This document shows, piece by piece, positions 9,170 through 16,100 of a DNA stretch of 16,100 bases. The position numbers and the translations under genes are program-made. The notes beneath the pieces are model-generated. The model had not been told where the DNA came from. It ran no database searches and saw only the letters and a program-made list of their open reading frames with translations. The stretch lies in IMG/VR virus record IMGVR_UViG_2778261673_000002; one strand, written 5' to 3'. Every line of letters begins with the position of its first letter. The stretch's first letter is position 1. The stretch is from a virus (lineage: Duplodnaviria > Heunggongvirae > Uroviricota > Caudoviricetes).

Positions 9170-12850
<3,681 letters not shown>

Positions 12851-12876
<26 letters not shown>

Positions 12877-13396
12877 TCAGCAACCCCGGTATCAGTTCAT
12901 CCAGCGCGGCTGCTTTGTTCATGGCTTTGATGATATCCCGTTTCAGGAAATCAACATGTCGGTTTTCCAGTTCCGGAAAACGCCGCTGCACCGACAGGGG
13001 GATCCCGTCGAGAATACTGGCAATTTCACCTGCGATCCGCGACAGCACGAAAGTACAGAATGCAGTTTCCACCACTTCAGCGGAGTCTCTGGCATTTTTC
13101 AGCTCCTGTGCGTCGGCCTGCGCACGCGTAAGTCGATGGCGTTCGTACTCAATAGTCCCTGGCTGGAGATCTGTCTCGCTGGCCTGCCGCAGTTCTTCAA
13201 CCTCCCGGCGCAGCTTTTCGTTCTCAATTTCAGCATCCCTTTCGGCATACCATTTTATGACGGCGGCAGAGTCATAAAGCACCTCATTACCCTTGCCACC
13301 GCCTCGCAGAACGGGCATTCCCTGTTCCTGCCAGTTCTGAATGGTACGGATACTCGCACCGAAAATGTCAGCCAGCTGCTTTTTGTTGACTTCCAT
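12851..13396 (-). CDS. Nu1: Terminase small subunit Nu1 (181 aa)
   Basis: 181-aa ORF MEVNKKQLADIFGASIRTIQNWQEQGMPVLRGGGKGNEV... matches lambda Nu1 and is the first gene downstream of cos. Confidence 0.95.
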
Positions 13397-13425
13397 TGTT
13401 CATTCCACGGACAAAAACAGAGAAA

Positions 13426-13573
13426 GGAAACGACAGAGGCCAAAAAGCCCGTTTTCAGCACCTGTCGTTTCCTTTCTTTTCAGAGGGTATTTTAAATAAA
13501 AACATTAAGTTATGACGAAGAAGAACGGAAACGCCTTAAACCGGAAAATTTTCATAAATAGCGAAAACCCGCG
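13426..13573 (-). other. cosB: terminase (Nu1) binding region with R elements
   Basis: Three copies of the GGAAACG / CGTTTCC core at 13426-13432, 13466-13472 and 13527-13533. The first two lie in an 11-bp perfect inverted repeat GGAAACGACAG (13426-13436) / CTGTCGTTTCC (13462-13472). Sequence is the reverse complement of the lambda left end as I recall it. Confidence 0.8.
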
Positions 13574-13585
13574 AGGTCGCCGCCC
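13574..13585 (-). other. cosN cohesive-end sequence (12-nt overhang region)
   Basis: Plus strand AGGTCGCCGCCC, reverse complement GGGCGGCGACCT (the lambda cohesive end), flanked by CGCGGGTTTTCGC (left-end side) and CGTAACCTGTCGGATC (right-end side). Confidence 0.9.
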
Positions 13586-13620
13586 CGTAACCTGTCGGAT
13601 CGCCGGAAAGGACCCGCAAA

Positions 13621-13637
13621 ATGATAATAATTATCAT
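13621..13637. repeat. Perfect 17-bp palindrome ATGATAATAATTATCAT between cosN and the next ORF (candidate cosQ-proximal protein-binding site or operator)
   Basis: 8-bp arms ATGATAAT / ATTATCAT around a single central A; lies about 36-52 bp from the cosN nick position. Confidence 0.4.
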
Positions 13638-13784
13638 CTACATGTCACAACGTGCATCTACGCCATCAAACCACGTCAAATAATCAATTATGACGCAGGT
13701 ATCGTATTAATTGATCTGCATCAACTTAACGTAAAAACAACTTCAGACAATACAAATCAGTGACACTGAATACAGGGCAACCTC

Positions 13785-14018
13785 ATGTCAACGAAGAACA
13801 GAACCCGCAGAACAACAACCCGCAACATCCGCTTTCCTAACCAAATGATTGAACAAATTAACATCGCTCTTGATCAAAAAGGGTCCGGGAATTTCTCAGC
13901 CTGGGTCATTGAAGCCTGCCGCCGGAGACTGTGCTCAGAAAAAAGAGTTTCTCCTGAAGCAAACAAAGAAAAGAGTGACATTACTGAATTGCTCAGAAAA
14001 CAGGTCAGACCAGATTGA
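13785..14018 (+). CDS. Small hypothetical protein (77 aa) with ribbon-helix-helix-like N-terminal region
   Basis: ATG at 13785. The segment RNIRFPNQMIEQINIALDQKGSGNFSAWVIEACRRRL fits the RHH pattern (beta-strand, helix, G-turn, helix) of Arc/CopG-type DNA binders, with a basic N-terminus. The 5' part of the gene lies in lambda-like right-end sequence. Confidence 0.55.
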   Translation: MSTKNRTRRTTTRNIRFPNQMIEQINIALDQKGSGNFSAWVIEACRRRLCSEKRVSPEANKEKSDITELLRKQVRPD

Positions 14019-14075
14019 AGCAATTTAGATAATCGTGCAGACTACGCCCCATCATATCACATGGAAGGTACTACA

Positions 14076-14486
14076 ATGGCTCAGGTTGCCATTTTTAAAC
14101 AAATATTCGATAAAGTGCGAAATAATTTAAACTATCACTGGTTTTATTCTGAACTAAAACGTCACAATGTCTCACATTACATTTACTATTTAGCCACAGA
14201 GAATATTCATCTTGTTCTTGAAAACGATAATACGGTTTTAATAAAAGGACAGGGTAAGGTTGTAAATGTAAGATTTTCAAAAAATAAATGCCTTATAGAA
14301 GCCACCTTAAAAGGATTCAAATCAGGAGAGTTATCATTTTACGAATACAGGAAAAATCTTGCTACAGCAGGGGTTTTCAGATGGATTACAAATATCCACG
14401 AAAACAAAAGGTATTACTATACCTTTGATAATTCATTACTATTTACTGAGAACATTCAGAACACTACACAAATATTTCCGCACTAA
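14076..14486 (+). CDS. Hypothetical protein (136 aa), tentatively YbcV/DUF1398-like; AT-rich accessory gene
   Basis: ATG at 14076 preceded by GGAAGG at good spacing (the ORF-track start at 14061 is less likely). Visibly AT-rich codon usage unlike the structural genes. Size and position (between lysis genes and cos) resemble ybcV of lambdoid prophages; the family assignment is from memory and unverified. Confidence 0.55.
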
Positions 14487-14531
14487 ATCATAACGTCCGG
14501 TTTCTTCCGCGCCAGAACCGGACTCGCTGGC

Positions 14532-14696
14532 ATGATGAAATATGTGTACCCGGTAACCCCGGTGTGCATCGTTTTTGATTATTCCCGCACACTCACGCAG
14601 AAGGAATTCCCCGTCGGGCTACGGTCATGGTTAATGCGGGAATACGGCGACGATACAGCGTATGATGTGTCAGGCTTGAATACCTTTATCCGTTAA
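14532..14696 (+). CDS. Possible small ORF (54 aa), hypothetical
   Basis: Hand-translated ATG..TAA ORF MMKYVYPVTPVCIVFDYSRTLTQKEFPVGLRSWLMREYGDDTAYDVSGLNTFIR, below the ORF-track length cutoff. No convincing Shine-Dalgarno; may not be expressed. Confidence 0.25.
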   Translation: MMKYVYPVTPVCIVFDYSRTLTQKEFPVGLRSWLMREYGDDTAYDVSGLNTFIR

Positions 14697-15000
14697 AAGG
14701 GATATCAGTTAAGTTATCCCGTGTAGGGTATAAGCCATTGTCGAGACCACTCATTGAATGGCCTCTGCAATAACCGATGTCTTTCCATCAGTCCGCCACC
14801 ACAAAGAATCTTTTTTGCCTTAAGGCAGGAGCTTCATCTTTCAGTGGCTGCCAGTGTTATTTCCCCACTTACTGGCTTGGGTTGTTTCGTGGTACTGCCG
14901 TTAACTGGTGGCCCAGAATAAATTCCGGTTTCATTATCAAGCCCACCCGTAAATGGGCTTTGTAATGAAGAGTTGTTATGAAAATTGCTCTAAACAAGCA

Positions 15001-15489
15001 TTAATAGCCATCAGAAGTAATCGCTACAGATTTCAATCCCTCAATGTCATCCTTGGACAGGGCGAACCATTCACCGTGCTTTCTCTTTGCGGCAAATTTG
15101 CGATGAAGCATGTTTTCAGTTTCTCTTCCACCAGGGATCAGGCACTCAAGCTTCAAGCAGTCTGGTCCAGAGTTGCCAAGCGATTTGATGCGTTGTGGAA
15201 TGTTGGATGAATACCCAATTTTGGTTAGCCCAGTTTTCTTCGATGACAAAACGTATACCTGAGGAGGTTCTTTTCTCTGGTCTTCCATTACACGTCTCAT
15301 TGTTGCCATAAGTCCGCCGTGCATCAGCATTTCAACAAAGAACGCTGACCGAACACCTGACGACTTAAGCATGCCAGAAAATTCACTTGCCAATTCCATT
15401 AACTCTGCGATGTTTTCAGGAACTTTTTGGCAGTTATCTTCCTTGTATAAGGAAATCATTCTTTGAAGCTTTTCTTCTAATTGGTTCAT
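15001..15489 (-). CDS. T5orf172 / GIY-YIG-like domain protein (162 aa) with an uncharacterised helical N-terminal region
   Basis: C-terminal segment VYVLSSKKTGLTKIGYSSNIPQRIKSL....HRKFAAKRKHGEWFALS carries the GIY / KIGxT / R / H / EWF motif series of the T5orf172 (GIY-YIG-like) family. Start placed at ATG 15489 (MNQLEEKLQ..); the ORF-track start at 15525 is a GTG. Not part of lambda as I recall it. Confidence 0.7.
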   Translation of the reverse strand: MNQLEEKLQRMISLYKEDNCQKVPENIAELMELASEFSGMLKSSGVRSAFFVEMLMHGGLMATMRRVMEDQRKEPPQVYVLSSKKTGLTKIGYSSNIPQRIKSLGNSGPDCLKLECLIPGGRETENMLHRKFAAKRKHGEWFALSKDDIEGLKSVAITSDGY

Positions 15490-15638
15490 AGCGTCTTTAC
15501 CTTTTAGAAAGTGAGCCTGTCTCACAGAAAAGCCGCCCCGAGATGGTCGCCACCATATACGGCAGTTCTCAGGCTCAACTTTCTGAAAGGCTCGGGTGAT
15601 GTAATATGCGCGTGAGATGCGCTGTGAAATTCAGATGT

Positions 15639-15662
15639 AAAAAAAGCCCCGCATCGCGAGGC
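15639..15662 (-). terminator. Intrinsic terminator downstream of Rz
   Basis: Minus-strand RNA: GCCUCGC-GAU-GCGGGGC (7-bp stem with one G-U pair) followed by UUUUUUU, about 35 nt after the Rz stop codon. Confidence 0.55.
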
Positions 15663-15695
15663 TCATTAAATGGACTTTGTGATTTGCAAAAAAAA

Positions 15696-16100
15696 TTATT
15701 TCAGGCATTGCGTCCTGATGTATTCCTGCAGGTAGTTAACCTGCGCGGTTATCTTGTCGATTCCACTTCGGAGACGGTAATAATTGAGTTCAGCATCTGC
15801 TGTAAGTCCTGGGCTTTCTCCATCGCCCATGCCGCTGGCTCCGGTCGTTGACTTTGCACAGGTGGCGGCGACTTGCAGGCGCTTACGCCCAGCAGAAACA
15901 TCAGCACGGAGACTTTCGATAGTCGCGTTAGCATCAGCAAGCTCCTTTGTGTATCTTGCATCGAGCGCAGCAACATCACGCTGACGCATCTGCATGTCAG
16001 TAATTGCCGCGTTCGCCAGCTTCAGTTCTCTGGCATTTTTGTCGCGCTGGGCTTTGTAGGTAATGGCGTTATCACGGTAATGATTAACAGCCCATGACAG
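15696..16100 (-). CDS. Rz: Spanin inner-membrane subunit Rz, C-terminal part (N-terminus lies beyond the window end)
   Basis: The frame is open from the window edge: [57 protein letters not shown]..., matching lambda Rz closely in the first ~60 residues and diverging towards the C-terminus. Confidence 0.85.
15749..15934 (-). CDS. Rz1: Spanin outer-membrane lipoprotein subunit Rz1, embedded in the +1 frame of Rz
   Basis: [20 protein letters not shown] has a signal peptide with a lipobox (VSAC), followed by a Pro-rich segment ([16 protein letters not shown]). Lies entirely inside Rz, as lambda Rz1 does. Start chosen at ATG 15934; the ORF-track start at 15979 is an alternative. Confidence 0.75.

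Follow-up and report, generated by a model that had tools for sequence, protein, structure and literature searches.

A probable mosaic of catalogued lambdoid modules between the lysis genes and cos of a lambda-like phage

The interval between the lysis genes and cos of this lambda-like phage is very probably a mosaic of three catalogued lambdoid modules rather than one new island. This reading is drawn from sequence comparison, and the high confidence attached to it covers the identity of the modules and the mosaic structure of the interval. The window analysed is a 16,100-nucleotide stretch of viral DNA (IMG/VR virus record IMGVR_UViG_2778261673_000002). Nearest to cos, the first module would be a two-gene unit, ynfO-ydfO (DUF3950 plus DUF1398), that matches the Qin prophage of K-12; the second would be a non-coding junction common to many lambdoid phages between lysis or accessory and packaging regions; and the third would be a 733-bp cassette with a small T5orf172 gene at the position of bor in lambda. 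For the three proteins of the interval, "known" means catalogued, not understood. The features are as follows, in window positions.

13575..13586, no strand: cosN, the 12-nt cohesive-end site (read directly)
13785..14018, plus strand: YlcI/YnfO-family gene, DUF3950, 77 aa (Pfam, PHROG)
14076..14486, alternative start 14061, plus strand: DUF1398 gene, YbcV/YdfO family, 136 aa (Pfam, PDB 2HH8)
14487..14660, no strand: lambda/DLP12-type non-coding flank 3' of the DUF1398 gene (lambda alignment)
14497..14521, plus strand: hairpin CCGGTTTCTTCCGCGCCAGAACCGG directly past the DUF1398 stop codon (conservation, direct reading)
14700..14969, no strand: conserved non-coding junction, about 270 bp, with a near-invariant core at 14776-14905 (alignments, genome survey)
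14970..15702, minus strand: T5orf172 cassette, 733 bp (comparison with cargo-less loci)
15001..15489, alternative GTG start 15525, minus strand: T5orf172/MUG113 (GIY-YIG superfamily) gene, 162 aa (Pfam)
15644..15664, minus strand: intrinsic terminator, 3' of Rz and 5' of the T5orf172 gene (hairpin and T-run)
15696..16100, minus strand: 3' part of Rz with embedded Rz1, continuing beyond the window end (ORF list)

The sequence AGGTCGCCGCCC at 13575..13586 is taken to be the reverse complement of the lambda left cohesive end, GGGCGGCGACCT, and the lambda right end starts at 13587.

Relationship of the interval to lambda and other lambdoid genomes

Three segments of the window align with lambda: 13300-13947, across cos, at 96.9% identity; 14002-14660, with the DUF1398 gene, at 82.8% to the YbcV region; and 15885-16100, in Rz, at 92%. 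Lambda similarity is absent only in 13948-14001 and 14661-15884. At the first of these places 54 bp of the window stand against about 613 bp of lambda, ybcW among them. At the second, bor and another Rz 3' end in lambda correspond to the junction and the T5orf172 cassette in the window, whose last 63 Rz codons are of the HK106 type. From these alignments the real replacements relative to lambda appear to be only two, namely the missing ybcW and the 733-bp cassette at 14970-15702, and the small nuclease-like T5orf172 gene at the bor position appears to be the sole lambda-foreign gene of the interval.

In K-12, the nohA-ynfO-ydfO segment of Qin is collinear with window positions 13300-14524 in one piece, with no gap and 91.1% identity. 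Gene lengths (77 and 136 aa), the 57-nt spacer and the orientation are all equal to those of the window; at the protein level YnfO is 97.4% identical but YdfO merely 75.6%. The same order and orientation of DUF1398 and DUF3950 genes are found in lambda (Rz-bor-YbcV-YbcW-small ORFs-cos) and in DLP12 (rzpD-borD-ybcV-ybcW-ylcI-nohD). Thus, the layout Rz-(bor)-ybcV/ydfO-(ybcW)-ylcI/ynfO-Nu1/noh is common to lambda, DLP12 and Qin, and a ynfO-ydfO-type unit is a regular part of their right ends; ybcW, which lies between the two genes in lambda and DLP12, is missing from the window as it is from Qin. The other end of the interval resembles phage HK106, with 97% identity over 14685-14915 and 93.6% over 14919-16094 (likewise 93.6% from Rz at 15696 on). 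Because the closest relatives differ from piece to piece (Qin, lambda/DLP12 and HK106), the pieces do not seem to have arrived jointly.

The full arrangement is present in 73 of 5426 complete E. coli genomes, counted where at least 80% of 13300-16100 occurs in one place, with 97-99% identity in those listed, and PGAP names all three genes in genomes that have it. Phage Chlobot also carries the arrangement and is 98.5% identical over 96% of the window.

A preliminary description of this DNA had placed a single non-lambda island between Rz and cos, starting at position 13900. That label fits the T5orf172 cassette and little else: two of the three genes are lambda/K-12 orthologues, the product of the third is 99.4% identical to HK106 gp64 (annotated as a GIY-YIG nuclease family protein), and position 13900 falls within the DUF3950 ORF. 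The misjudgement arose because so little is known of the ORFs at lambda's own right end (YbcV, YlcI-type). Aligned with lambda and other prophages, as the description had advised, each piece of the interval is collinear with a common, well-known prophage; the genes concerned, however, lack assigned functions, so that the island proposal is refuted in part. Its observations on composition and coding content were borne out. GC content is 31-33% in the DUF1398 gene and 40-48% elsewhere in the interval, whereas the terminase genes have 52-57%, and about 0.5 kb (14487-15000) holds no credible ORF. ARAGORN found no tRNA or tmRNA, an Rfam scan of 13300-16100 (E<=1) returned as its sole match a chance miRNA over the cosB hairpin, and a search of the interval for repeats gave no meaningful structure.

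The interval thus appears to be an ordinary recombinant of catalogued modules that does not point to a new defence or conversion system, and the value of the result is negative in that one candidate is removed. All three proteins are abundant members of the y-ome, found in hundreds to thousands of E. coli genomes, and any function they prove to have would apply widely.

The ynfO-ydfO unit and the non-coding junction

The DUF3950 protein matches PF13132 with 74.6 bits (cut-off 25, E=5e-21) and PHROG 949 (E=8e-34), and its first 55 residues are 94.5% identical to a lambda small ORF and to K-12 YlcI. The ORF had been called RHH-like, and while the ORF itself is real, the protein is only possibly a small RHH-like DNA-binding protein. 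Against Arc, hhalign gives the register expected for the strand and helix A, at E=0.024 and a probability of 2%; CopG gave no match by the same program, no RHH family of Pfam was found at E<=0.1, and a profile search of PDB sequences returned no match. A weak match to a HicB-like PHROG (E=0.007) falls below significance. The DUF1398 protein, whose plus-strand, AT-rich gene had been rightly assigned to the YbcV type, matches PF07166 across the full profile length (147 bits, E=3e-43) and PDB 2HH8, which is YdfO (E=1.4e-69). It has 76-78% amino-acid identity to lambda YbcV, K-12 YbcV and K-12 YdfO (the last at the 75.6% given above). The AF2 model has a pLDDT of 48, and a weak match to HEPN_AbiA_CTD (E=0.014) is below the family cut-off. 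Literature searches for a function of DUF1398 or of ydfO, ynfO, ybcV and ylcI returned no paper addressing it in title or abstract.

The pair runs away from cos, antisense to the late operon as bor is, and judging from this orientation its expression is most likely from the prophage. The hairpin at 14497..14521, which has no T-run, is the probable 3' end of the unit and is kept in lambda, DLP12 and Qin, Qin having C-G for T-A in one pair of the stem. The flank at 14487..14660 is 81.7% identical to lambda. A 54-aa ORF at 14532-14696, annotated in phage Chlobot, was rejected as a gene, as lambda has a 1-nt deletion and frameshift in it. Database proteins that seem to fuse DUF3950 to DUF1398 (P0176, with 761 member sequences, and P0172) were likewise rejected as a functional link; they have W at the window's TGA and result from gene calling under a wrong genetic code.

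Between the flank and the cassette lies the unannotated junction, 14700-14969, a segment of about 270 bp that occurs in lambda-like, HK97-like and P22-like phages. It is 97% identical in HK106 and Sf101 and 91.5% identical in BTP1, and its flanks vary on both sides among loci. About a fifth of complete E. coli genomes (1051 of 5426, counted where at least 80% of 14690-14915 is present) contain it, nearly always unannotated. In a scan of one genome per species, E. coli, Shimwellia and a few MAG contigs were its sole carriers, a divergence too low for a covariation test.

No conserved ORF spans 14754-14997. A plus-strand ORF from the ATG at 14777, at the left edge of the conserved core, was dismissed on account of a frameshift in at least nine loci, mostly non-synonymous changes and no Shine-Dalgarno sequence, and a minus-strand ORF of 24 aa (Sf101_0064) is not kept across junction variants. 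The junction has no Rfam match and no promoter match. Folded as RNA, it has z-scores of -3.3 (minus strand) and -2.3 (plus strand). Among 78 unique copies, substitutions that disrupt a predicted pair are as frequent as those that preserve one, and paired positions are not spared, which lends an RNA structure no support, in a test of low power. STnc6030 of BTP1 sits elsewhere, antisense to the tailspike gene. A full-text literature search with strings of the junction sequence gave no match.

The T5orf172 cassette and its variable slot

The T5orf172 gene was correctly placed on the minus strand, in the direction of the lysis genes. Residues 90-163 of its product match PF13455 (MUG113) with 55.7 bits (cut-off 22.3, E=7e-15) and PF10544 (T5orf172) with 40.8 bits (cut-off 20, E=3e-10). 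The family profile is matched by 38,349 library representatives (E<=0.001), and most of the best 150 listed match in the C-terminal domain only. An AF2 model (pLDDT 87.4) has an N-terminal three-helix bundle and a C-terminal nuclease-like domain. Residues 1-75 have no Pfam match, and fold searches with the N-terminal domain recognised no DNA-binding fold, matching generic helical bundles only. Across 10 homologues, down to 35% identity, Y79, K90-I91-G92-Y93, R100, E125 and H129 are invariant; from knowledge of the motif rather than structural superposition, Y79, R100 and E125 are presumed to be the GIY-YIG catalytic positions (the Tyr of strand 1, Arg and Glu), on which the fold searches gave no information.

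Comparison with 14 loci in which Rz adjoins the junction delimits the cassette, which measures 733 bp in the window against 159 bp in those loci. Window homology ends at 14968/14969 in all 14 cargo-less loci and resumes at 15698 or 15703 in 13 of them, and the boundaries against phages without cargo are 14969/14970 and 15702/15703. The cassette thus appears to be a clean replacement with sharp boundaries, 93.6-97% identical to HK106, and it is present or absent at the same position among relatives in the manner of a moron, the term used in HK97 and lambdoid phages for an additional gene unit within an operon. It is found on lambda-type and HK97-type backbones. Homologues of the protein with 48% and 76% identity come from prophages whose lysis cassettes are of other types, and are encoded just past the lysis genes, co-oriented with them and before terminase or portal genes; a second lineage, g341c/epsilon34, with an identity of merely 33%, is found at the cassette site too, 10 bp away from the junction, and a Klebsiella homologue overlaps a downstream Endonuclease_NS gene.

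The space between lysis cassette and packaging genes had been proposed as a variable accessory slot, and by comparison of loci this is evidently what it is. Tabulating the gene that adjoins the shared junction in 126 related loci, the window included, gave KilA-N with P63C in 57, this T5orf172 type in 20, a short KilA-N gene in 14, Rz with no annotated cargo in 14 and a Tad2-like gene in five, with Rha also represented. A slot in which such genes are interchangeable is a reasonable place to seek counter-defence or competition genes.

The terminator that had been noted between Rz and the T5orf172 gene is present just past the Rz stop codon at 15696, as a 9-bp stem with six GC pairs followed by TTTTTTT (15664-15644 on the minus strand), and a rho-independent terminator is annotated at the equivalent place in HK106. 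A promoter scan of 14487-15700 found no consensus sigma-70 site. By eye, a weak TTCACA-16-TATTAC lies on the minus strand at about 15610-15583, outside the scanner's rules, so that transcription of its own, as expected of a moron, is possible; a hairpin without a T-run lies 3' of the gene at 14940-14965. Because the T5orf172 gene is co-oriented with the lysis genes, behind the Rz terminator and without a consensus promoter of its own, it would most likely be made late in lytic growth by Q-antiterminated read-through of that terminator, a timing suggested by orientation. The protein is probably a dispensable competition factor with DNA as its target, which it would bind or cut in a sequence-directed way. 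Taken jointly, the late timing and the DNA-directed role are a tentative reading, somewhat more likely to fail than to hold.

Alternative readings and comparison with known systems

That the interval is one foreign accessory island with an undescribed lysogenic-conversion, exclusion or defence function is improbable. The slot is indeed variable and elsewhere holds Tad2-like (Thoeris anti-defence) and KilA-N/Rha genes, base composition is atypical, and none of the three proteins has a known function; however, two of the three genes are lambda/K-12 orthologues at their usual places, the pieces have separate closest relatives, and a T5orf172 gene co-oriented with the late operon behind a terminator is ill-suited to prophage expression. 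The defence function suggested in the preliminary description was not sustained, as the three proteins have no significant defence-system match in PADLOC-DB v2, the T5orf172 domain giving a weak, domain-level match to the candidate PDC-S57 (E=8e-6, 23.6 bits) and Csx23 appearing at E=0.025. It is more improbable still that ynfO-ydfO is a toxin-antitoxin-like or abortive-infection pair, with a DUF1398 toxin encoded after an RHH antitoxin. Type II systems usually have a small gene of this RHH-like kind immediately 5' of the other gene, and the weak HicB-like and HEPN_AbiA_CTD matches point the same way. Yet both matches are below significance, the searches with Arc and PDB sequences do not establish an RHH fold for YnfO, PADLOC has no significant match, the database fusions are gene-calling artefacts, and in lambda and DLP12 the opposite-strand ybcW splits the two genes, unlike a tight operon.

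For the T5orf172 gene, a free-standing homing-type endonuclease is an unlikely alternative. Made late, it would cut lambdoid genomes without the gene, whether co-infecting or resident, at the junction or close to it, and repair would then copy the gene in, the junction and Rz supplying the homology. The main homing-endonuclease family in ICP1-like phages is that of the T5orf172 proteins, which lie at genetic-exchange boundaries, often near terminase genes (PMC10448857), and the fixed site with sharp boundaries, the sporadic distribution (arrangement in 73 genomes, junction in 1051), the 33%-identical lineage at the same site, the two backbone types and the conserved motif residues are all consistent with homing. 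On the other hand, the protein has no recognisable DNA-binding domain and, at 162 aa, is small for a sequence-specific endonuclease. Because the slot also holds non-nuclease genes, ordinary recombination via the conserved junction accounts for the pattern equally well. The further proposal that temperate lambdoid phages have in the cassette a selfish nuclease of homing type, with the junction as target and homology platform or as a cis-acting element of the late transcript, is improbable; if true, both would drive the exchange of cassettes between lysis and packaging modules in lambda-, HK97- and P22-like phages. It is also unlikely that the protein has been domesticated into a DNA-binding regulator or antirepressor-like factor that does not cut and that does the job of the KilA-N/Rha proteins found in the slot in other phages. 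KilA-N, Rha and T5orf172 modules do alternate at the site, and there is a precedent in CapR, a domesticated T5orf172 protein reported to act as a repressor in the PLE satellite (PMC8096241). Tyr, Arg and Glu are, however, invariant at the presumed GIY-YIG catalytic positions in 10 of 10 homologues, which would be unexpected after a loss of catalysis, and the Klebsiella homologue that overlaps an Endonuclease_NS gene points to DNA degradation and not regulation.

The window departs from its nearest relatives in several ways. Past ydfO, Qin has gnsB, ynfN and cspI, whereas the window has the lambda-type flank, the junction and the T5orf172 cassette. HK106 shares the Rz terminator and the 3' junction of the cassette but is HK97-like, with a 62-bp insertion at the equivalent of 14916-14918 and, past the junction, an HNH endonuclease gene and HK97-type packaging genes instead of DUF1398, cos and Nu1. 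The characterised T5orf172 homing endonucleases of ICP1-like, T5-like and other lytic phages carry a separate Zn-finger DNA-binding domain (CapR/DUF723/DUF4397; PMC10448857) where the window protein has a three-helix bundle, and the latter is shorter, belongs to a temperate lambdoid phage and is known from its sequence only. What the window protein shares with them is the Pfam nuclease-like domain, a location at a mosaic boundary near terminase genes and a patchy distribution.

Mosaic composition of the Rz-to-cos interval

The window is a lambda-like phage in reverse orientation: lambda matches 92% of its bases at 97.5% identity, and the closest phage record, Chlobot, is 98.5% identical over 96% of it. 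The cosN site, read directly from the sequence against the known ends of lambda, lies at 13575-13586. Thus, the interval between Rz and cos corresponds to the right end of lambda.

Features of the interval and its flanks
10951-12876, minus: terminase A (ORF list)
12851-13396, minus: Nu1 (ORF list)
13785-14018, plus: DUF3950 (YlcI/YnfO) ORF (Pfam, above curated cut-off)
14076-14486, plus: DUF1398 ORF (Pfam, above curated cut-off)
15001-15489, minus: T5orf172/MUG113 ORF (Pfam, above curated cut-off)
15664-15644, minus: terminator-like hairpin and T-run directly after Rz; a terminator is annotated at the equivalent spot in HK106
15696 to window end, minus: Rz (ORF list)

Much of the preliminary description is borne out. 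The three genes lie on the strands it assigned, each above the curated Pfam cut-off; the T5orf172 gene is separated from Rz by the terminator-like hairpin; and about 0.5 kb (14487-15000) holds no credible gene when its ORFs are checked for conservation. The shift toward AT is likewise real, with GC contents of 31-33% in the DUF1398 gene and 40-48% in the remaining interval versus 52-57% in the terminase genes. The reading of 13900-15695 as a new, non-lambda island fails, however, since blastn alignments match its pieces to lambda, the K-12 prophages DLP12 and Qin, and HK106.

Alignments of the interval to lambda, K-12 DLP12, K-12 Qin and HK106 (blastn identity)
13300-13947: lambda and DLP12 (best match), 96.9%
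14002-14660 (DUF1398 gene and 3' flank): lambda, 82.8%
13998-14660: DLP12, 83.6%
13300-14524: Qin nohA-ynfO-ydfO, one ungapped-order block, 91.1%
14685-14915: HK106, 97%
14919-16094: HK106, 93.6%

By annotation, lambda, DLP12 and Qin likewise carry DUF1398 and DUF3950 genes between Rz and Nu1/noh, in the order and orientation of the window. Only two differences from lambda are left, the absence of ybcW and the replacement of the bor region. As in Qin, ybcW is missing, 54 bp standing in place of about 613 bp in lambda and DLP12. A direct repeat, TGCTCAGAAAA(A/C)AG, flanks this 54-bp segment at 13932-13945 and 13990-14003 and may mark the joint of the deletion or replacement. The 3' end of Rz (its final 63 codons) and that of the overlapping Rz1 (15696-15884) are of HK106 type and show no blastn similarity to lambda, which returns at 15885; the exchange that brought the T5orf172 cassette therefore had one breakpoint inside Rz.

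Of 5426 complete E. coli genomes, 73 have the whole arrangement, with 97-99% identity among the matches listed, and PGAP names every gene. Most full-length E. coli matches to 13300-16100 consist of three pieces that extend over about 2964 bp, compared with 2801 bp in the window, and so carry an indel of some 163 bp; in strain L26 an IS903B-family element is inserted within the interval. Judged by sequence, the interval is a recombinant of modules that lambda, HK106 and the K-12 cryptic prophages already carry, and it is common in E. coli genomes.

An 83-aa ORF (13512-13763, plus) crosses cosN and is thus unbroken only when the DNA is circular or in the prophage state. PHROG 9395 matches the 40 residues at its C-terminus (E=1.3e-25); the ORF is annotated in Chlobot, and a shorter ORF is annotated there in lambda records.

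The ynfO-ydfO unit

The window YnfO is 97.4% identical to that of K-12, and the DUF1398 protein shares 76-78% identity with lambda YbcV, K-12 YbcV and K-12 YdfO, the last of which has a structure solved by NMR (2HH8). The two genes run antisense to the late operon, and a hairpin 3' of the unit is kept in lambda, DLP12 and Qin; the unit is likely expressed from the prophage. Profile comparisons did not establish an RHH character for DUF3950, a literature search found no paper on the function of either family, and none of the DUF3950, DUF1398 and T5orf172 proteins had a PADLOC match of any weight. The two genes share one frame, with a lone TGA and 57 nt between them and no other stop (14016-14075). 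A database protein, P0176 (233 aa, 761 member sequences), joins DUF3950 to DUF1398 with W at the TGA; such fusions were rejected, as they look like gene-call artefacts of a TGA=Trp code.

A conserved junction beside a variable slot

Between the DUF1398 3' flank and the T5orf172 cassette lies an unannotated, ORF-free junction (14700-14969), nearly invariant among lambda-, HK97- and P22-like phages and mosaic on both flanks. A 27-mer from this ORF-poor region retrieved 120 viral contigs; adding the window and further loci gave 126 copies for comparison. To the left of a near-invariant core (about 14776-14905) stand at least five sequence variants unrelated to one another. The left-hand neighbours are Sf6-type or P22-type small terminase genes, DUF2560, Gp49/66, an HK97-type HNH gene or DUF1398.

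Occupants to the right of the junction
KilA-N+P63C: 57 loci
This T5orf172 type: 20 loci
Short KilA-N: 14 loci
Rz directly: 14 loci
Tad2-like: 5 loci
Rha: at least 1 locus, plus BTP1 and Sf101

The slot is variable, as had been proposed, in that the neighbouring gene differs between loci; the variable unit, however, is the T5orf172 cassette alone and not the entire interval. Where Rz adjoins the junction (14 loci), homology to the window extends to 14968/14969 and, in 13 of 14, returns at 15698 or 15703, which delimits a cassette of 733 bp (14970-15702) replacing 159 bp. In locus L016 and four other viral loci, all from related phages, the slot (equivalent to about 14977-15579) carries the Tad2-like gene, whose product has a Thoeris anti-defence 2 domain (Pfam E=6e-22), where the window has T5orf172.

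Among the 5426 complete E. coli genomes, 1051 contain at least 80% of 14690-14915 (94-100% identity among the matches listed), almost never annotated, and in P22-like phages the junction makes up most of the stretch of about 250 bp that separates the variable gene from the DUF2560 gene (orf80). Recent spread together with use as a recombination patch may account for the conservation of the junction, or alternatively a function in cis. A scan of one genome per species found the junction in few taxa; searches within it found no conserved ORF, Rfam family or promoter match, and substitution patterns gave no support for RNA pairing.

The T5orf172 protein

The T5orf172 protein is 99.4% identical to HK106 gp64. 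Its full-length architecture defines a small family (16 clusters in a word-indexed search), whereas the family of its C-terminal domain is very large (38,349 representatives at E<=0.001). Residues Y79, KIGY90-93, R100, E125 and H129 do not vary among homologues down to 35% identity. The P22-like phages g341c and epsilon34 have, in the same slot and 10 bp away from the junction, a 33%-identical homologue of like architecture. In prophages whose lysis cassettes are unrelated, homologues of 48% and 76% identity again closely follow the lysis genes, in the same orientation and upstream of terminase or portal genes; a 35%-identical homologue has a different, unannotated neighbourhood. The 76%-identical gene, in a Klebsiella variicola prophage (L135, 4001-5187), is followed, with a 4-nt overlap, by an Endonuclease_NS (PF01223) gene of 232 aa; the lysis cassette lies on one side of this pair and a small terminase gene of P22 gp3 type on the other.

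A scan found no consensus promoter ahead of the T5orf172 gene, and we infer, as the simplest case, that it is likely expressed late by read-through of the Rz terminator. The best-supported statement of mechanism is limited to a probable DNA-directed activity of the T5orf172 protein and to the likely timing of the two units, T5orf172 late and ynfO-ydfO in the prophage. In ICP1-like phages, T5orf172 proteins can be homing endonucleases and occur at exchange boundaries near terminase genes (PMC10448857), and one such protein, CapR, has been domesticated as a repressor (PMC8096241). Those proteins have Zn-finger DNA-binding domains, whereas the window protein is without them.
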